Translations under genes and position numbers: made by a program
In this document: in pieces, positions 1,055 to 58,118 of the stretch
Position numbering within the stretch: the first letter of the stretch is position 1
Layout: every line of letters starts with the position of its first letter
The notes under the pieces: generated by a model
Seen by the model: the letters and a program-made list of their open reading frames with translations, nothing else
Databases searched by the model: none
What the model was told of the DNA's origin: nothing
From: a virus
DNA length: 64,000 nucleotides
IMG/VR virus record: IMGVR_UViG_3300024581_002111
Coordinates: 14,309-78,308 of that record
Strand: one strand, 5' to 3'

Positions 1055-4000
1055 GTGGCACAGCATAAGGATTACGGACTTGTTGGCGTTGGTAACGATG
1101 TACAACTAGGCAAGCAGGGTCCAAGACTAAAGAATAACGGCGATGGCACACTCAGTGTCACAGATCTCAGCGGCGCAAATGGCACACAATTATCTGGTGC
1201 TAACGCAATAAATGCCGCAGATTTTGTAACCAAGGCACAGTTGGATGCACTTGCATCTGGTGCAGGCACCGATGGTTTTAATTTACAATTAGGTAATATC
1301 AACAGTCAAGGAGACGCAAGTTGGACTGACGGTGCTGTGCAAACTATCACCAATACTACTTCAGTATCGCAAGCAATTGACGACCTCAACGAAGCAATGG
1401 AAAATGTGCGTAACAACACATTTGTTAAAAGTGTTGATTTCACAGTGGACAACAGTGTAGGTGGTGCACCTTTGGTAAGCACACTCACAATAACCACAGT
1501 AGGTAATGCAGACCGTTATACAATTGACTGGGGCGACGGCGACACCACAACAGCCACCTCAGATTCAACTCCTACTCACACTTACACTGACAACACCAAT
1601 TCTCCATTTGATGTAACAGTGACAGCATTTAACAGCTCAGGTTCAGGCACAGGTTCAAGTGCAGACAAAGAAAAGGTAGACTTTATCACCTTGTACACTG
1701 GTGACCCTGAGGCGGATTTTGAATTCTATGCGGCTAACACAGGCGGCGCCGCTATCAATTACATAGACGATGGTGCTACAGTGTACTTCGACAACAACAC
1801 CACAAACACAAGTGGTGCTGATGTTGAATACACAATTAACTGGGGTGACAGCACACCAGATGCAAACGTAGCAAGTGACAGTGCAGACGGCGGTGTAGCA
1901 GGCAACAGATTAGCTCATGTGTTTACTACATCAACTGAACAAGAACAGTCATATACGGTGACTTTAACTTTAGATAGTCACAGTACTGCTGACCCAAGTG
2001 TTATACCAGACACAACTACAGCAGTGATAAAAGTATACGATACTCATACCCCAGAAATTGCACTAGATACAACTAATGTAATTAACGAAGATGCAACAAG
2101 TGGTGGTGTTGTAACATTTACAAACACCACCGAAAACACAATCGGCAGTTATGCCGATTACGGTATTCAATACAGATATAATTGGGGCGATGGAACCACT
2201 AACACAGTGAACGTGGGCACTGGCGCAGATGGCGACACTGGTCGCACAATCAATCACACTTATGCACTTAGTGGAGCTCAACAAGCGGCAGGCACAGGCG
2301 CTGACTTTACAGGTAACTTGGAAGTTATATCAAATCACACTGGATCACCATTTATCAGTTCAGACTTCACAGTGCACGTTGAACCAGACTTGAGAGCAGA
2401 AATCACTTCATCAAGTACAACATCAAGTTTAAAATCCAGCAACGACAGTATTAGAACTGTGTACAAAGGCACAGACTTATCAGGTACTAACCGTGCTGTT
2501 ATTACTGTAGACAACACCACATCACCAAGACAGAGTGGTGTGCAATATCAATACAGTTGGGGTGATGGCAGTGCCAATGTAACTGTAACAGAAGTCAATG
2601 CTCCTGTACCGCCAGATGCTGGTACAGTGTTAGGTGCAAACATAACTCACGATTACAGCAATGCCACAACAGGTAGCAAAACATTAACCATGCAGGCAAC
2701 AGGCACACTGGATATCACTGCACAAAGTTCCACAGTTTCACAAACAGTTGTAGTAGAAGATGTGCCGCCAGCACCGGCAGGTGTTAGCAGTAAGACACTT
2801 ACATTGAACACAACACCAGATCACGCAGGCTCAGCAAAACTAGCAAGTGGTGCTAATAATGCATGGAGAGGTGTTACTGCAGGCACAGATCTTGACAGCA
2901 ACACTGTGAGAAGATATGACGACACAGAAACTGTGAGAACCAATGCAATCACAGATGCATACAATGCCGCAAGCGGGACACTCAGTGCATTGGTTAATGG
3001 TGTTGCAGATGGTACCAAAACATTTACTACTGCAACAGGGGAAACAGGTACATTTAGTGCATTAGATATTTCCAGCGCAGGCGATGCACACAACGAAATT
3101 AGTTCAACAATATATCCAGAAAACTTTTACCAAGTGTTCTCAGCAAGAGTGAGCAGAAACATCACTGCCTTAGGCCATGGTGTCCACACATTTGCACTCA
3201 GTCATGATGCTACTGGCACAACTAACAATGTGTATGTGGTATATGATAATGTAAACAGTGTACCAACATTAGACATCAATGGTGCAAGTTTACAAGAAGA
3301 AACAAATGGTTCGCTGAGATATGTTAGTGGTATTCCATATTACAATTCAGGTAGCCCAACAGTTAAACTGGTAGGTGCTACAGTAACAAATCTAGTAGGC
3401 CAAGCATACAAAGACGACAGTGCTATATTCAACATCAGGAGCGGCACCAACACTGAAGGTTCAGGTACAGCAGTGGTGCAAAACAGTAGAAGTTATGCAC
3501 AAATAGATGGTGCTGTGTCAATGATGGATGGCAGTATTCCAACTGCTAACGTTGGTGTTGGCAGTGCTTACACATTAGGAAACATCAGCATCGACATTAA
3601 CAATAATAATTGTGTAGAGCCTATCAAGTTTACTATAGAAAACGTTGTGGGCACTAGTGCAGATTCAAATCAAACAGCAGAACAGATTCAAGTATGGGCA
3701 TCAGCACCAACCTTTGACGAGGGTGCTATTCCAGTAGCAGATGCACTAGGTGCAGGTTTTGATGACGACGGCAAGCGCATTACTGGCTTTGGCGGCAGTG
3801 CTGACACTCCTGTGTTTGATAACAGTGTGGACAACTACACAGCAAATGTGTGGAGTGGTGCAGAAACCATTGCTGGCACAGCAGAAGCAGTGAACAGATT
3901 CAACGTGCTGACTCATTATGATACAGATTTATCGAGCGGGTACCTACCAGTAGGACCCGACTTGAGCACAGGCAGAAGCGGTGCTCAATATTTTACTTTT

Positions 4001-14185: not shown

Positions 14186-14335
14186 TTAAAAAGAATGGAT
14201 ATACAAGAACCAATTAATAAGTGCGATCAAACCTGCTTGCATGGTCACTGCTCCTAACACCACACAAGTGGGGAAAATTGCATTAGCCTTTGCAGGGTTG
14301 TCTTTGACCCATTGTTCAAGTTCCTTCTCTGTCAC
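14186..14335 (-). CDS. 49-aa single-TM protein (not in track)
   Basis: GTG start: MTEKELEQWVKDNPAKANAIFPTCVVLGAVTMQAGLIALINWFLYIHSF. Confidence 0.55.
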   Translation of the reverse strand: MTEKELEQWVKDNPAKANAIFPTCVVLGAVTMQAGLIALINWFLYIHSF

Positions 14336-18892: not shown

Positions 18893-18900
18893 TATTTATC
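18893..18900 (-). promoter_or_regulatory. Late promoter for the clpX-rpsU operon
   Basis: GATAAATA. Confidence 0.7.
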
Positions 18901-19225
18901 TGGGCTTACCGGTATACTTGAGATTAGTAGAATCCTCATCATCGTCCACTGGTAGTGGCATTGCCCAGAACCCCATCTTTCCTCTTACTTCTTCCTCTGA
19001 TAACTTTTGTAACATATCAAGTATTTCTTCCTCTGACAGATCTTCTTTGTTCATTTCGCTTTGCGCCATTAATCTGGCGGCTTCGCTGAGATCGCCTGTC
19101 GCAGGTGTTTGCACACGGTCTGGTTGTTTATCCAACAACTCATATGCTTCTTTGAGTTTTTCCAGTGCGTGTGCGTATTTTGCATTCAATAAGTCAAATG
19201 CTTGTTTGATTTCATCAGCCTTCAT
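18896..19225 (-). CDS. Acidic helical hypothetical protein
   Basis: Operonic overlap with its neighbours. Confidence 0.6.
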   Translation of the reverse strand: MKADEIKQAFDLLNAKYAHALEKLKEAYELLDKQPDRVQTPATGDLSEAARLMAQSEMNKEDLSEEEILDMLQKLSEEEVRGKMGFWAMPLPVDDDEDSTNLKYTGKPR

Positions 19226-19454
19226 TGCTTTGTGTTCTGCCTAACACTTGTGCTTCTAGTTCGGCAATACGAGCGGGAGTGGATAAGTCGATGTCAATGT
19301 CTGCTTCAACCTCAACAATCTTCTCAACAATCTTCTCAACTTCTTTGGGCTTTTCGTCCAACTTATCCAGGGTGTTTAACAATAACTCTAGAGTGTTACC
19401 GTACCTGCCCCACAAGCCATCAAGTGCTTCTTTGATTTCTTTTTGGTTAGCCAT
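19215..19454 (-). CDS. Hypothetical protein with a VEKI repeat
   Basis: 12-bp tandem repeat encoding VEKIVEKIVE. Confidence 0.6.
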   Translation of the reverse strand: MANQKEIKEALDGLWGRYGNTLELLLNTLDKLDEKPKEVEKIVEKIVEVEADIDIDLSTPARIAELEAQVLGRTQSNEG

Positions 19455-20979
19455 TTAATTTCTCCTGTATGCGTTTTTCCAGCTCTAGTATTGCTGGCGG
19501 AACGCTTAAATCTAAGTCTGGTTCTTTTTTCTTGCGCGGCTTTCTTTTGGGTTTTACGCTAGAAGGTTTATCGACTTGCTGTGTAGAACTGTTGTCTCCA
19601 GTTGTCCCCACTTGTTGTAGGTGTGCACTGTCGTCTGTTGTATTCCGTCCTTTGGTAGAATTTTTACCGTTGTTTTTATCATCGGTCTGTCCAGCACTGG
19701 ATCCCCCATTGGGTGGGTTGGCATTGCTGGTGTTGCCGCTATCGGGTTTATTTCCGTCATCATCTGGTCCTGCCTTTTCTAAATTAATTCCATACCTCAG
19801 CAGTGTCTGGTTAGCCGCAATAACCAACATAACCGCCAGTGGGTCAAACACAAACACCAGCATCAGTATGAATACCTGTACTGCTTTGTCTAACAACTCT
19901 TGATCGTCACCACCAAACAATAATTGCGCCACATACTTGATAGGGCCTACTTCTTTTTCTAATGCACGAACTTCACGTTCTGCTTCAAACTTCTCGTCTT
20001 TGAGCAGTGCAATAGAATCATATATGGCATCGATCTGACTGTTGTAGTCATCAATTTGTGCCAGTTGTTCGTCTTGATTTTGTGCACTTTGGTTACGCAC
20101 ACGGTTTATTTCTGCATTGGCATTGTCAATTGTGGTTTGTGCTTGGCTTCTATATCTGTCGATTGCTTTCTGGAAAGTGCTGATATCTGCGTTTGCTTGT
20201 GTACGCAATGCTTGACGCTGTGTGTTTAGCTCTGCTTTCTGAGAGGCAATTTGATCACGTTCTGATTGTTGCGACTCACGCAACTGATTTGCTTGTGCAA
20301 CATAGTTAATGGTGTCTACTTCTGCACTTCTGAACAAACCACCCTGGTCGGTTTCAATAGTGGCAACACCTTTGTTGCGTAACTCATTTACTGCACGATC
20401 TAACTCTGTGAGTCTGGCATCCAGTTTGTTTTCTCTGACATCAAGTCCTTCTAGGTCAGCAGTTAGTTGTGCTCTCACACTGACAATTTGTTGCTGGTTA
20501 TAATCAATGTCGCCTTGTACCTGTTCCCAGGCACCATCTCTGATACTTTCTTGTTGGGATATATCAGTAGTAGATTGCAGGCCGCCTAATCCCGAAATAC
20601 GATCTTGCAGTATGCTGATCTTGTTTTCTTCTCGAGCAATTTGCCCGTCAATGCGCTCTACAATGGCAAACGCTTCACTGCTGACACCTGCCTGGTCTAA
20701 GTGTGCTTTAGACAGATAACCAAAGATACCCATGCTGGTTATGAGCATGAGCACAAGAACCGCGGCACTTAAATATGATTTTAATGCCAGTCCTGTACTT
20801 TCCCAGTACCTGTATAACCAACTTGCTGTGAGCAGTTTGCCCACTTCCAGTGTCCCGGCCATAACTGCAATAGGTAGTGCGGCCGCACTGAATATGGCCA
20901 TCAGTCCAGCAATGCTGAACCAAGCCGCAACGCCCGCTATTGTTAAAGCGGTTAAAAGTGTGAGTATTCCAAACCACAT
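19447..20979 (-). CDS. Membrane protein with N-terminal TMs, a long coiled coil and a further TM
   Basis: LEVGKLLTASWL, GIFGYLSKAH, about 280-aa heptad region, EVGPIKY, FVFDPLAVML. Confidence 0.8.
   Translation of the reverse strand: MWFGILTLLTALTIAGVAAWFSIAGLMAIFSAAALPIAVMAGTLEVGKLLTASWLYRYWESTGLALKSYLSAAVLVLMLITSMGIFGYLSKAHLDQAGVSSEAFAIVERIDGQIAREENKISILQDRISGLGGLQSTTDISQQESIRDGAWEQVQGDIDYNQQQIVSVRAQLTADLEGLDVRENKLDARLTELDRAVNELRNKGVATIETDQGGLFRSAEVDTINYVAQANQLRESQQSERDQIASQKAELNTQRQALRTQANADISTFQKAIDRYRSQAQTTIDNANAEINRVRNQSAQNQDEQLAQIDDYNSQIDAIYDSIALLKDEKFEAEREVRALEKEVGPIKYVAQLLFGGDDQELLDKAVQVFILMLVFVFDPLAVMLVIAANQTLLRYGINLEKAGPDDDGNKPDSGNTSNANPPNGGSSAGQTDDKNNGKNSTKGRNTTDDSAHLQQVGTTGDNSSTQQVDKPSSVKPKRKPRKKKEPDLDLSVPPAILELEKRIQEKLNG
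19554..19763 (-). CDS. Candidate nested gene in an alternative frame inside 19447-20979
   Basis: AGGA 5-6 nt upstream, genome-typical A-ending codons, protein-like MTEINPIAAT...TYNKWGQLE...SINLLA. Confidence 0.5.
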   Translation of the reverse strand: MMTEINPIAATPAMPTHPMGDPVLDRPMIKTTVKILPKDGIQQTTVHTYNKWGQLETTVLHSKSINLLA

Positions 20980-42892: not shown

Positions 42893-43639
42893 TTACTTGG
42901 ATTTTGTGATTTTTTTGTCTGAAACCAGCATTTCTGCCCACTTGATCATGCCATAATACGTCAGATCTAAGGGTCCAAAACGTGGATTATTGGGCTTCCA
43001 GTGGTGGTTTGCGTGGTACAATTCGCCCATCCAGGGTATAGCAAGTAGCCAATTATTGCGTGGCTTCAACTCTGGTGTATGCCCTAATAGGTTCAGGCCC
43101 ACTTGATATAGGTAAGATATTGCTATCAATGACACCAGTAACTCCCAACCAAATGCGTACACAAAGCCTGCTTGGAGCACTAGAGCAGTTTCCCAATACC
43201 ATTTTGCCTGTGCTTGATACAGTGGACTTCTCAACATCCATTTAGGTATGTGCTTCATAGGCGGAGTATGATTGAACACACAGAAGTTCTCCCAAATGCT
43301 TTTTACCCAACCGTGTGGATCACCCTCTTGATCAGTGTGCTTGTGATGGCTGAGGTGCACAGCGGCCCATCCCATTGCGGGTTGATTCAGCATGAGAGTT
43401 GTACTGCCCATCAAGAATACTTCTAGCCATTTGGGCATACGCCAACTGCGGTGTGAACAATATCTGTGTAAATATCCGCTGGTGGTGAATCCTGTGAACA
43501 CAGTGGCACACACAAACAGCGTGAGTAACTCTAGTGGTGTATAATGAAACACACTGAGATACCCAAACAGGGCACTGCATGCAAAAAAGATTGTTGTGTG
43601 AAGTGGGCCGTTGTGTTTACCAAATAATTTAAATAGCAT
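42893..43639 (-). CDS. Membrane fatty-acid desaturase (delta-9/DesC-like)
   Basis: His boxes HRYCSH, HLSHHKH and HANHH, plus DPH and TM segments. Confidence 0.88.
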   Translation of the reverse strand: MLFKLFGKHNGPLHTTIFFACSALFGYLSVFHYTPLELLTLFVCATVFTGFTTSGYLHRYCSHRSWRMPKWLEVFLMGSTTLMLNQPAMGWAAVHLSHHKHTDQEGDPHGWVKSIWENFCVFNHTPPMKHIPKWMLRSPLYQAQAKWYWETALVLQAGFVYAFGWELLVSLIAISYLYQVGLNLLGHTPELKPRNNWLLAIPWMGELYHANHHWKPNNPRFGPLDLTYYGMIKWAEMLVSDKKITKSK

Positions 43640-46410: not shown

Positions 46411-47107
46411 GTATAATTTCGGCGAGATCTGCGGCTACTTGTGCACAGGCACGTTTGCCCATGTGACCGCAAGGCGTTTGAGGGAAATGACTATGCACTA
46501 TGCTGGTGTCATACATGTTATCTAACCCCACAGTGTCCCATTCTACTGGATTCTGTTGATGTACTTCTAGTTGAGAGTTTGGAATAATTGCATGAACAAG
46601 GCACTTGACTTTGGGCTTGATGAATAGTTCGATGTGATTCATATACAGTAATGTGTGTAACTCTGACTCATAGTCATTCCAGTGATCTCGATAGTAGTCC
46701 ATTACACTAGCATCATCATCCATCCATGTTCCGTATGCTTTTATTTTGTTGTTCCAGTATTCTCCAGTTTGCCTGGGCTCCCAAACAAACTTATCCAGTT
46801 GTAAAGGCTCAGGCCAATGTTTTATCTGGCATGTTCTACTGTGATGTGACCACATCACTACCACAACATCAGTGGGTAAAAATGCAGTGTTGAGCATGGT
46901 GTTCCAAATTTCTTTGTTACTAGCACCCAGTGAGCCTGCGTTGATTGTTTGAGTCGAATTTAAACGTTTGCCTAACCAAGCAGGCCAACTGTATTCGCTA
47001 GGCACACAATGTACAAAAGGATTGCCGTCTTCGTCTTCTTGATCTAGCGCATCGGGTAGCCCGTGGCCAAATGTAAAACTGTCGCCGAAGCACAGTAGTC
47101 GACTCAT
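46397..47107 (-). CDS. SGNH/GDSL-like protein (third copy)
   Basis: FGDSFTFGHG, LGASN, VMWSHHSR, CGHMG. Confidence 0.65.
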   Translation of the reverse strand: MSRLLCFGDSFTFGHGLPDALDQEDEDGNPFVHCVPSEYSWPAWLGKRLNSTQTINAGSLGASNKEIWNTMLNTAFLPTDVVVVMWSHHSRTCQIKHWPEPLQLDKFVWEPRQTGEYWNNKIKAYGTWMDDDASVMDYYRDHWNDYESELHTLLYMNHIELFIKPKVKCLVHAIIPNSQLEVHQQNPVEWDTVGLDNMYDTSIVHSHFPQTPCGHMGKRACAQVAADLAEIILDKA

Positions 47108-47955
47108 AGTGTTAGTGTCTCGTCGTCACTGATTTTTGAATTGTTTATGCTGTCAAGTTGACCAGCACCTTTTACTCCGCCTTGCCAAACCATTTTTTCA
47201 AATGGATCTTGTTTACCTGCTTGTACTTTATCCCACCAATCACTGTGTTGACCAATCTTGTCCAAGAACCAAGCAATCTTAAATGCACTGCGTACACGAG
47301 CTTGTTGCATATCGGGGTGACCAAAATCTCTAGGATCGTCTGGATTGCCCTCCATGTACTTGCGATTGCGGAATGTGTCGTCGTCATTATTGCCTGTGAT
47401 ATCTGCACGATCATGCAAGAATTCTACATCAATACGCTCAAAAATATCCAGCATGTATGCAATATGACTTAACCAAGCATCGTTCTGTGCATTGATACTG
47501 AGATGGTCCATCAAGCGGAACCAGTCCATTGGCACAATAGGGAAGATAGCATACGGGTGACCGTCGTGATTATCTTTGGGTGCTAACAGTTTGAACTGAC
47601 CATTATAACTTTCAATCACATCGTCCCAATTTTCAGTGAGCATGATGCCATCATCGTTCCAAAACATCAGCCAGTCACCATTTGCGTTTGTGGCTAGTGT
47701 GTTAACGTATGTGTGTAAGTTTTCGTAACCCAATGGTTTAAAAATGTTTGCTCTGCACTCAACTGCATGCTCTTTCATTAACGGAGCAACATTTTGTTCA
47801 ATGTACTCTTTGATACCATCATCATCGTCGTCGATGCCCAAAAGAAATTCCAATCTTGTGGGGTCAGAAGCAGTGTCCAATAAACTGTTTAAACTTTTTA
47901 GTAATGCTTCTCTTCTTCCCCTAGTGGGCAATAATATTGATATTGTGGTACTCAT
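47104..47955 (-). CDS. GT2-like glycosyltransferase
   Basis: LLPTRGR, GIDDDD, MFWNDD, FPIV, NDAW. Confidence 0.8.
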   Translation of the reverse strand: MSTTISILLPTRGRREALLKSLNSLLDTASDPTRLEFLLGIDDDDDGIKEYIEQNVAPLMKEHAVECRANIFKPLGYENLHTYVNTLATNANGDWLMFWNDDGIMLTENWDDVIESYNGQFKLLAPKDNHDGHPYAIFPIVPMDWFRLMDHLSINAQNDAWLSHIAYMLDIFERIDVEFLHDRADITGNNDDDTFRNRKYMEGNPDDPRDFGHPDMQQARVRSAFKIAWFLDKIGQHSDWWDKVQAGKQDPFEKMVWQGGVKGAGQLDSINNSKISDDETLTL

Positions 47956-55805: not shown

Positions 55806-58118
55806 TTAAATTTTGCAACTGTCACAGTCGTCGTCATCCATAACGCTTGATACTGTGTTAACTTGAATGTCTTTTTTTACTTCTTCTTTGTGGACGTCAA
55901 TTTCACCTTGTCCATCAAATGTGTTGTTGTAGTATAACTGTTTGCCACCATATTTATAAAACATGATTAAGTGTTGTAGTAGAACACTCATTGGAACTTT
56001 TTCGTCTTCAAAGTGTTCTGGATTATACGAAGTGTTCACCGATATTCCTTGGTCAATGTACTTCTGTAACACAGCACAAATTTTCAAGTAACCTTCAGGT
56101 GACTTTTGATCCCACAACAAATCATACTTGTTTTTAAGTTTAGCATATTGTGGTACTACTTGCTTGAGTACACCGTGTTTGCTTTGCTTGATGCTTACAT
56201 AACTGCGTGGTGGCTCAATGCCGTTTGTGCTGTTTGAAATCTGTGCACTTGTTTCCGCAGGCATCAGTGCCATCAATGTGCTGTTTCTAATACCTGTTTC
56301 TTTTAACTGTTTACGCAAACCTGCCCAATCCATGCGCTCTTGATGAGGCACTAATTCGTCTACATCCTTCTTGTATGTTTGGTTAGGAGTAATACCATGA
56401 CCGTACTTGGTTTCCATTAACCCAGAAATAGCACCTTTCTCTACTGCTAGGTCAGCACTGGCTTTGATCAAATAATAACTCCATGCTTCTGCCCACTCGT
56501 CGACAAGTTCCAAGTTAGGATCCTGATAGTTTGTGTCATTTTTAGCCAACCAAAACGCAAAGTTGATAATACCAATGCCCAATGGTCTGCGTTTCATTGT
56601 GGCGAGCTCTGCGGCTAACACTGGGTACTTTTGGTAGTCTAGCAGTGCGTCTAAGCCCCTTACAGCAAGTTCGCAAGGCTTTGCAAAGTCTTGTGGTGTC
56701 TTGATCTTACCCCAGTTAATTGCGCTTAGTGTACACAGTGCAATCTCACCTTCCTCATCATTTGCATGATTAAGAGGCGTAGTCGGCAAATCAATTTCGC
56801 AACACAGATTACTCATACGCACAGGCGCAACTTCTGGAATAAAAGAACCATGATCATTAGCGTGATCAACATTCATTAAATATACTCGACCTGTGTCTTT
56901 GCGTTCTTGTACAAACGCACTGAACAGCTCAACTGCTTTCATGGTCTTTTTGCGTAGGCGTGTGTTACGTTCTGCTGTTTCGTAAAGCTCTTTGAAACGG
57001 TCTTGGTCTGCGTAGAATGCATCATATAGTCCTGGCACGTCATGCGGCGAGAACAATGTGATATCTCCGCCACTGAGCAATCTCTCGTACATGAGCTTGT
57101 TAAACTGTACACCATAGTCCATATGTCGCACACGATTTTCTTCTGTGCCTTTGTTATTCTTGAGAACCAACATGTCCTCAATTTCATAATGCCAAATTGG
57201 ATAGTACAATGTAGCGGCTCCGCCTCTTACACCACCTTGGCTACAGCTCTTTACGGCACTTTGAAAAAGTTTGTAAAAAGGAATAACGCCAGTGTGTGTA
57301 GCATCTCCACTTCTGATAGGTGATCCAATAGCTCTGATTTTTCCTGCACCAATTCCGATACCTGCCTTTTGACTCACATACTTAACAATACTAGATGTGG
57401 TAGCATTAATACTGTCCAAACTATCATCGCTCTCAATAAGAACACAACTGGAGAACTGTCTTTGAGGAGTTCGTACCCCAGCCATAACAGGAGTAGGCAA
57501 ACTGATATAGTGTTGACTAACAGCATCGTAATAATCCTTTACAGTTTGTAGTCTGGTTTCTTCAGGGTATTCTGAGAACAGTGTCATTGCAATCAACATG
57601 TATGCAACCTGAGGTGTTTCAAAGATCTCACCAGTTGACCTGTTTTGTACTAGATACTTGCCACGGAACTGCTCCATTGCCGCATACGTTAGACTTTCGT
57701 CACGCACATGATCGATATATCCATTGAGTTCATTGATTTCCAGCTCAGTGTACTTTTCTACTATGTCAGCATCGTAGAAGCCCTGCTTGATATTTTTGTT
57801 AATAATAGTCTGCAGGTGAGGTGGTTCAAATGAACCATACACTGCTTTTCTCAAGTGGTAGTTGATTAGTCTTCCAGCAACAAACTGATAATTTGGTGTT
57901 TCTTCTGTGGTGAGGTCTGCCGCACTCTTGATTAATGTTTCCTGGATATCACTGCTGGTAATACCATTATAAAACTGTATGTGGCTTTTGATTTCGACTT
58001 CACTAGCACTTACACCGGATATGCCATCACACGCATGAAAGACGACTTTGTGCAGTTTATCTAAAATAAGCTCTTCTTTAGTGCCGTCTCGTTTGGTGAT
58101 TAGAATTTGTTTTGACAT
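55806..58118 (-). CDS. nrdA: Ribonucleotide reductase class Ia alpha subunit with ATP cone
   Basis: TKRDG, SLPTPVM, FSSCVL, QGGVRGG, SNLCCEI, MPAETS, terminal CDSCKI. Confidence 0.98.
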   Translation of the reverse strand: MSKQILITKRDGTKEELILDKLHKVVFHACDGISGVSASEVEIKSHIQFYNGITSSDIQETLIKSAADLTTEETPNYQFVAGRLINYHLRKAVYGSFEPPHLQTIINKNIKQGFYDADIVEKYTELEINELNGYIDHVRDESLTYAAMEQFRGKYLVQNRSTGEIFETPQVAYMLIAMTLFSEYPEETRLQTVKDYYDAVSQHYISLPTPVMAGVRTPQRQFSSCVLIESDDSLDSINATTSSIVKYVSQKAGIGIGAGKIRAIGSPIRSGDATHTGVIPFYKLFQSAVKSCSQGGVRGGAATLYYPIWHYEIEDMLVLKNNKGTEENRVRHMDYGVQFNKLMYERLLSGGDITLFSPHDVPGLYDAFYADQDRFKELYETAERNTRLRKKTMKAVELFSAFVQERKDTGRVYLMNVDHANDHGSFIPEVAPVRMSNLCCEIDLPTTPLNHANDEEGEIALCTLSAINWGKIKTPQDFAKPCELAVRGLDALLDYQKYPVLAAELATMKRRPLGIGIINFAFWLAKNDTNYQDPNLELVDEWAEAWSYYLIKASADLAVEKGAISGLMETKYGHGITPNQTYKKDVDELVPHQERMDWAGLRKQLKETGIRNSTLMALMPAETSAQISNSTNGIEPPRSYVSIKQSKHGVLKQVVPQYAKLKNKYDLLWDQKSPEGYLKICAVLQKYIDQGISVNTSYNPEHFEDEKVPMSVLLQHLIMFYKYGGKQLYYNNTFDGQGEIDVHKEEVKKDIQVNTVSSVMDDDDCDSCKI

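Follow-up and report, generated by a model that had tools for sequence, protein, structure and literature searches.

Introduction

The closest described counterpart of the locus considered here is the embedded spanin pair Rz/Rz1 of phage lambda, in which the +1 frame of the gene for a phage membrane-anchored protein, one with an extended helical or coiled-coil stretch, wholly contains a small gene that begins at an internal start and is overlooked by gene callers. The o-spanin carries an outer-membrane lipoprotein signal with a lipobox cysteine, and a review of the spanins discusses an origin by loss of a stop codon and extension through the downstream gene (PMC6139136). The locus described below shares the Rz/Rz1 architecture, its internal start being a predicted one. 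It lies in a 64,000-nucleotide stretch of viral DNA (positions 14,309 to 78,308 of IMG/VR virus record IMGVR_UViG_3300024581_002111), which is referred to as the window, and comprises a small open reading frame (ORF) at 19554-19763 on the minus strand within a 510-codon ORF at 19447-20979. In our opinion, 19554-19763 is very probably a genuine gene that encodes a protein and lies, in frame +1, within the part of a phage membrane protein gene that specifies a disordered linker. Apart from those of small viruses and the spanins, few fully nested same-strand genes with support from frame-specific selection have, to our knowledge, been described; gene callers reject such genes. The arrangement is thus of a known kind; the example is new, and the small-protein family is undescribed.

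The differences from the spanins are substantial. The small protein has no signal peptide, lipobox, hydrophobic N-terminal segment or cysteine (0 of 21 sequences), unlike an o-spanin of the Rz1 type, and the lack of cysteine rules out its identity as an Rz1-type lipoprotein. The host protein has 510 residues and several hydrophobic segments, one of which follows the helical region, whereas an i-spanin has about 150 residues and a single N-terminal anchor, after which comes a periplasmic coiled coil. No lysis cassette with holin and endolysin genes is apparent in the window, where the neighbors of the pair are tail-module genes, clpX and the bS21 gene; the homologue in Pelagibacter phage Mosig, by comparison, follows a gene for a putative glucosaminidase. 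Finally, the small-gene family has both embedded and stand-alone members, which was not found for the embedded spanin families (PMC6139136).

Two further comparisons are relevant. Two reviews on viral overlapping genes (PMC8227390, PMC3494269) describe pairs of same-strand frames that are both maintained, one product being ordered and the other disordered and of low complexity, and usually describe overprinting as the birth of a new frame inside an older gene. The present pair is similar in that both frames are maintained by selection across relatives, the nested frame with a ratio of nonsynonymous to synonymous change (dN/dS, or omega) of 0.02-0.45 and the host frame with no stops in the nested copies scored. 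It differs from the overprinting described there in that the more widely distributed frame is that of the small embedded gene, while the frame that is disordered, and apparently newer, is the one of the large host gene. The other comparison is with the RHS/YD repeat (PF05593). The Y-x-Y-[ND]-x-x-G-x-L core of this repeat, placed in a beta hairpin, is shared by the small protein, and the family profile matches RHS-repeat proteins at multiple repeats; unlike those proteins, the small protein has one motif per approximately 65 residues, not a tandem array building a shell. The window peptide gave no match to PF05593 itself, the best match being that of the peptide from relative L010 (17.5 bits, E 0.0054, against a gathering cut-off of 22).

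The nested gene and its signals

The features on which the argument depends are the following.

19554..19763, minus strand: nested gene, 69 codons from the ATG at 19763 or 68 from a second ATG at 19760; stop codon TAA at 19554-19556
19572..19682, minus strand: beta-sheet part of the nested gene, residues 28-64, including the Y-x-Y-[ND]-x-x-G-x-L motif
19768..19771, minus strand: Shine-Dalgarno-like AGGA, at a distance of 4 nt from the ATG at 19763 and of 7 nt from that at 19760 (upstream of both), within host codons for K-A-G-P
19779..19781, minus strand: TAG stop in the nested frame, 5 codons before the first ATG, formed by host codons TTA and GAA (Leu-Glu of an NLEK motif)
19447..20979, minus strand: host gene, 510 codons, first in a run of minus-strand genes
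19555..19770, minus strand: linker in the host frame (residues 404-475 of the host), a spacer of low complexity, rich in G/D/N/S/T and coding in both frames
19450..19554, minus strand: host C-terminal tail (residues 476-510), open only in the host frame and without a Met of its own

The nested ORF lies wholly within the host ORF at an offset of 1216 nt, that is, in frame +1. An initial annotation, made from the sequence of the window, had placed a 69-codon same-strand ORF at these coordinates with AGGA just upstream, and had described the host frame as a low-complexity linker followed by a sensible C-terminus; each of these descriptions proved correct, the C-terminus being the conserved tail. 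The second ATG aligns with a conserved Met of the relatives, and AGGA, AAGGAG or a similar sequence is found 5-8 nt upstream of the aligned ATG in the 12 relatives whose upstream bases were read. The TAG at 19779-19781 cuts the nested frame off from anything upstream and is present in all relatives with the long type of linker (class A, see below). The +1 stops that bound the nested ORF derive from the host codon pairs TTA-GAA and GTA-AAA. A scan for promoters and terminators returned fewer sites than were found in shuffled controls.

Conservation and frame-specific selection in relatives

A scan of viral contigs identified host-gene homologues at 41 loci with 49-74% identity. These fall into two types according to the linker, which is long and of low complexity in class A and short in class B. 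All class A relatives have an open +1 frame of 60-76 codons, with a Shine-Dalgarno-like site, an ATG and a stop at matching positions. Nested copies were also added by a metagenome scan (five), and the +1 ORF is kept in 16 distinct relatives. The class B linker has a conserved host-frame motif of its own, F-E-E-Q-x-R-x-x-Y-G-D-N-M-P-D, and lacks the +1 ORF. Short linkers of the class B type were seen in L007, L014, L018, L020, L036 and L037, so that the locus has two alternative linker cassettes.

Three measures indicate that selection in the overlap acts on the nested frame. In nearly every pair of sequences, the amino acids encoded by the nested frame agree better than those of the host frame, with identities of, for example, 99% vs 80% for L010/L019, 65% vs 46% for the window and L004, and 71% vs 42% for L004/L005. 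The positional variability also changes: in the host flanks (N-terminal part and tail), host position 3 is the most variable (0.45-0.59), whereas the overlap varies most at host position 1 (position 3 of the nested frame), and the periodicity switches exactly over the overlap. In the close trio L010/L016/L019, the values for host positions 1/2/3 are 0.129/0.008/0.024 in the overlap vs 0.039/0.019/0.152 in the N-terminal part. The third measure is an OLGenie-style count, in which each difference was classed by its effect in both frames within three clusters of relatives. Nested-frame omega was 0.41 (95% confidence interval 0.30-0.54), 0.02 (0-0.08) and 0.45 (0.28-0.72), and host-frame omega in the overlap was 0.81 (0.59-1.14), 0.18 (from only six differences) and 0.98; all these values are approximate, as within-cluster pairs are not phylogenetically independent and the p-distances are uncorrected.

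The host frame is also maintained. It contains no stops in 15 of the 15 nested relatives scored, and the 510-codon ORF of the window is likewise uninterrupted. The tail downstream of the linker is kept in relatives, with variabilities of 0.36/0.19/0.49 at host positions 1/2/3, i.e., the normal third-position pattern. The absence of stops, together with a conserved tail of host-frame periodicity, argues that the host frame is maintained and read through. Judged from these comparisons, the host-frame linker appears to be kept open but to be otherwise near-neutral, with a host-frame omega of about 0.8-1. One motif that seems conserved in the host linker, D-D-S-V-H-L-Q-Q-V-G, recurs in the untranslated equivalent frame of the stand-alone homologue L048; it is thus a side effect of the conservation of Q-Q-T-T-V-Y-T-Y-N-K-W-G in the small protein.

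Stand-alone homologues

Homologues that stand free of any host gene, for which the initial annotation had called as support for its proposal, do exist: five stand-alone copies of the small gene are found in other uncultured phages (L048, L059, L060/L061, L062 and L065). Their surroundings are those of ordinary operon genes. Each begins at the Met of the alignment and is as long as the nested copies, and the host-equivalent frame contains 3-9 stops in each of the five. The L048 copy (67 codons, 50% identical over 66 residues) begins with a GTG that overlaps the stop of an IscU/NifU_N gene. The L059 copy, from a T4-like phage, lies downstream of the clamp-loader genes gp44/gp62, between regA (PF01818, E 1e-45) and a JmjC-like gene, with the junctions TAATG and ATGA. 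The L065 copy shares with the window copy the final bases ...LLA-TAA. The family profile gives full-length matches both in its own genome (E 5e-33) and to the stand-alone L048 copy (E 4.6e-32).

A profile search of 1.8 billion representative proteins returned 13 small proteins of 50-79 residues, with E-values of 9e-18 to 9.5e-4, as well as many RHS-repeat proteins in which the motif region was matched repeatedly. By sequence, then, the nested gene belongs to what appears to be an undescribed family of small proteins (50-79 residues) of uncultured phages. No homologue was found in GenBank (cultured) phages by tblastn with the nested and stand-alone peptides. Searches of the 82-kb record, the 340-kb relative and three fragments of class B found no second copy of the small gene; for the fragments, which are 27-32% complete, this is weak evidence.

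Two side observations concern the surroundings of the stand-alone copies. The IscU-type gene of L048 (L048:2615-3004) encodes a protein 56% identical to the IscU of the window phage (approximately 13773-14168), while the loci are otherwise not syntenic. Upstream of the stand-alone gene of L065, at L065:1396-2271, are two genes that resemble a separated spanin pair: the product of one has 159 residues, an N-terminal anchor and a coiled coil, and that of the other has 130 residues and an L-A-G-C lipobox-like signal; neither protein has a Pfam match.

The small protein

The 21 nested and stand-alone sequences have 60-77 residues, contain no Cys and are mildly hydrophilic. The N-terminal part, of approximately 27 residues, is variable, rich in Pro, Thr and Ala and predicted to be disordered. 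For the remainder, AlphaFold2 predicts three antiparallel strands (residues 28-36, 41-49 and 55-64), and the same sheet is obtained with 10 or with 26 aligned sequences. The predicted local distance difference test (pLDDT) score over residues 31-60 is 85-89 with 10 sequences and 88-93 with 26, the means for the protein being 74.5 and 79.4. Y49 and G53 are invariant in the 26 sequences. No significant family was found for the small protein in Pfam, PHROGs or NCBIfam, and a VIA-align comparison of the predicted fold, a beta meander, with 48,161 chains gave a best Z of only 4.4, no more than background.

The host gene and its neighborhood

The source record of 82 kb has a CheckV completeness of 24%. 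The contig of one relative measures 340 kb and is 91% complete; the window is therefore part of an uncultured giant phage. The host protein has hydrophobic segments at residues 1-47, 62-92 and 360-394, and the long polar stretch ahead of residues 360-394 is probably a coiled coil. The last hydrophobic segment is followed by the low-complexity linker (404-475) and a charged tail (476-510). Hydrophobic residues make up 5.6% of the linker vs 29.6% of the whole host protein.

No above-threshold match to the host protein was found in Pfam, PHROGs or NCBIfam. Its N-terminal membrane domain is also present in cultured jumbo and T4-like phages, such as Pelagibacter phage Mosig. The closest cultured homologue is Mosig_00157 (326 residues), in L070 (Pelagibacter phage Mosig, MT647606) at 789-2421. 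It is situated directly 3' of the gene for the "putative glucosaminidase", which hints that the membrane protein family may act in lysis or at the envelope. A 65-residue gene downstream of the Mosig homologue was considered as a relative of the small gene and found to be unrelated.

Two short genes follow the host gene in the window.

19215..19454, minus strand: next gene, 79 codons, a KPKEVEKIVE-type tail module that is part of the host-gene homologue in some relatives
18896..19225, minus strand: gene after next, 109 codons, fused to the host-gene homologue in L023, L033 and L036

In blastp, the product of the former matches tail regions of L005, L036 and L033, and that of the latter is 57% identical to residues 557-647 of L033 (E 2.5e-28). 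The fused ORFs of L023, L033 and L036 (from position 3001) have about 630-670 codons. The tail modules at this locus have thus been repeatedly split, as in the window, and fused, which makes fusion by read-through plausible here. Beyond these two small genes lie clpX and then the bS21 gene.

Proposed mode of expression

The comparative data suggest the following mode of expression, in which independent initiation and the production of both proteins are inferred. Ribosomes starting at the host ATG (20979) would read frame 0 across the linker and into the conserved tail, while others would initiate on the same host mRNA at the internal Shine-Dalgarno sequence and ATG (19763 or 19760) and produce a protein of 68-69 residues. 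This protein would consist of a Pro/Thr/Ala-rich disordered N-terminal half and a C-terminal three-stranded sheet with a single YD/RHS-repeat-like motif. In the overlap, selection would act on the sequence of the small protein, and the host frame would be constrained mainly to remain open and hydrophilic; the host segment would thus serve as a spacer whose sole strong requirement is to contain no stop.

Assessment of alternative explanations

Taken by itself, the sequence of the window makes no case for a nested gene above chance; the comparative evidence alone does so. It should be noted that several observations weigh against a genuine gene. When synonymous codons are resampled for an unchanged host protein, 23% of trials yield an ATG-initiated +1 ORF that reaches 69 codons or more, and 55% yield one that reaches at least 60. 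It is indeed to be expected that the +1 frame stays open, because the host linker between the bounding stops is nearly devoid of the L/I/V/M codons able to make +1 stops, and its Asp-Asp codons furnish the ATGs. The bases of the Shine-Dalgarno-like site are also dictated by a conserved host motif, K-x-G-P, so that their conservation is not independent evidence. The nested frame has a mean logarithm of relative synonymous codon usage (ln RSCU) of -0.116, which places it at the 0.4th percentile among 272 windows of 69 codons from the genome. To these may be added the approximate nature of the omega values, the lack of any Foldseek match at E <= 0.001 between the predicted fold and PDB or BFVD, and the fact that no family or structure match suggests a function for the small protein.

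The codon data require a comment, since the initial annotation relied on them. It had called the nested codons typical of the genome, which is not the case: the nested frame uses the rare codons ACG, CCG, GCG and TCG and ranks below the host frame in the overlap, which itself has a mean ln RSCU of -0.032 (2nd percentile). The accompanying statement that the host frame is atypical here is accurate, but it fails as a contrast with a nested frame that is more atypical still. Codon usage that is atypical in both frames is what dual coding predicts, yet for the same reason it is uninformative as to whether the nested frame is real or older. The rare NCG codons of the nested frame are probably due to avoidance of host-frame stops; for example, ACT followed by GAA in the nested frame would make a host TGA, so that the need for no stop in the host restricts the nested third positions. 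Of the two frame-specific analyses proposed at the outset, therefore, that of dN/dS was informative and that of codon usage was not.

These observations make it necessary to consider that the ORF is an accident, i.e., that a hydrophilic linker lacking Leu, Ile, Val and Met codons, with GAT GAT supplying the ATGs, leaves open a +1 frame that is not translated. The recoding result and the codon usage would agree with this, as would the presence in the genome of other nested ORFs of 60-82 codons that resemble junk, but the higher identity of the +1 frame, its third-position periodicity, the omega of 0.02-0.45 and the stand-alone homologues would all be left unexplained, and host identities of 49-74% speak against an artefact of very recent common ancestry. 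We therefore give the chance explanation hardly any credence. Among the other nested ORFs, same-strand examples of 80-82 codons lie inside long ORFs at 42893-43639, 55806-58118 and 47104-47955 (minus strand); their translations are Cys/His-rich and noise-like. Programmed ribosomal frameshifting from the host frame, which would produce a host isoform ending in the beta domain, is very improbable too. It would be compatible with a same-strand +1 ORF inside the host mRNA and with the lack of a separate promoter signal, but a conserved +1 stop precedes the conserved ATG by 5-9 codons in every relative, and the stand-alone homologues begin at the aligned Met with the same length. Equally slight is the probability that there is no dual coding at all, the 510-codon ORF being an N-terminal membrane gene and a separate tail, with a linker that is untranslated in the host frame. 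A host-frame omega near 1 in the overlap and the occurrence of both fused and split tail modules at the locus would fit such a division. What decides against it is that host-frame stops are absent from the nested copies scored and present in every stand-alone copy, and that the tail in the window, although it lacks a Met, is conserved with the periodicity of the host frame. A genuine nested gene with approximately 210 nt of dual coding, as the initial annotation had proposed, is thus strongly supported by the conservation, the frame-specific selection and the stand-alone homologues.

Origin of the nested arrangement

It was further proposed in that annotation that the small gene is the older of the two and that the large gene was extended through it. 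The second part of this proposal is not demonstrated, on account of the host tail. The tail motif P-S-A-V-D-D-A-A is present both in class B and in the outgroup L039-L042, all of which lack the small gene; the tail therefore predates the overlap, and the small gene is situated between two ancestral parts of the host gene rather than beyond its old 3' end. The first part is favored, in that the frame of the small gene appears to be older and the host linker frame to have been overprinted across it, because members of the family are ordinary genes in unrelated phages, including T4-like ones, and because the host-frame linker shows no independent conservation. On balance, we prefer capture of an older small gene into the linker, which we regard as somewhat probable, to its birth there.

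The distribution of the linker types is complex. Classes A and B do not separate in the tree of the host N-terminal part but are interspersed; its well-supported branches require two changes or more, and five are needed on the best tree. The trees also conflict, L005 grouping with L010/L012 by the N-terminal part and with L004 and the window by the peptide. The interspersed classes and the conflict between the trees point to recombination of the linker cassette and to losses. In L063 (L063:2-541), a contig that stops short of the N-terminal part, the small gene follows P-S-A-V-D-D-A-A instead of preceding it, which makes a second embedding position in this host-gene family.

The opposite origin would be de novo overprinting in an unconstrained linker, followed by escape of the small gene to stand-alone positions, its likeness to the YD repeat being convergent. 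Some features of the peptide tree are in its favor: stand-alone copies fall among nested ones, L048 pairing with L051/L004 (support 94/81), and nested copies occur on both sides of the midpoint root. The identity of the final ...LLA-TAA bases of the L065 and window copies is a further point for it. This tree of short, divergent peptides (approximately 65 residues) is, however, too poorly resolved to give a reliable root or direction of transfer, and its well-supported branches force only one change. Escape from a linker also accords poorly with the L059/L060/L062 group in T4-like phages, which has a conserved N-terminal motif of its own, with the outgroup and the many ingroup host genes that lack a nested gene, and with the profile similarity to RHS repeats, which suggests descent from an existing fold. 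We consider this origin doubtful, though by no means negligible, and retain the capture of an older gene as the preferred explanation.

Implications

The small protein may be a soluble partner or modulator of the co-expressed membrane protein, which is in our view a rather unlikely but legitimate suggestion. A slightly less tenuous idea, also speculative, is that the small beta protein serves as a dedicated partner for the membrane protein in whose linker it is encoded, in the way that Rz1 serves Rz, and that its family has repeatedly switched between the stand-alone and the embedded state, using two or more embedding positions and showing a distribution that is patchy and recombining. If this is true, the family would provide a natural system for studying how embedded genes arise, the likely route being capture of an older gene into a disordered linker and overprinting of the host frame across it.

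The occurrence of one family both as embedded and as ordinary genes opens the origin of an embedded architecture to comparison, which the survey of spanins could not do for the embedded families (PMC6139136). More generally, the locus presents the disordered linkers of large proteins as permissive places for a second reading frame.

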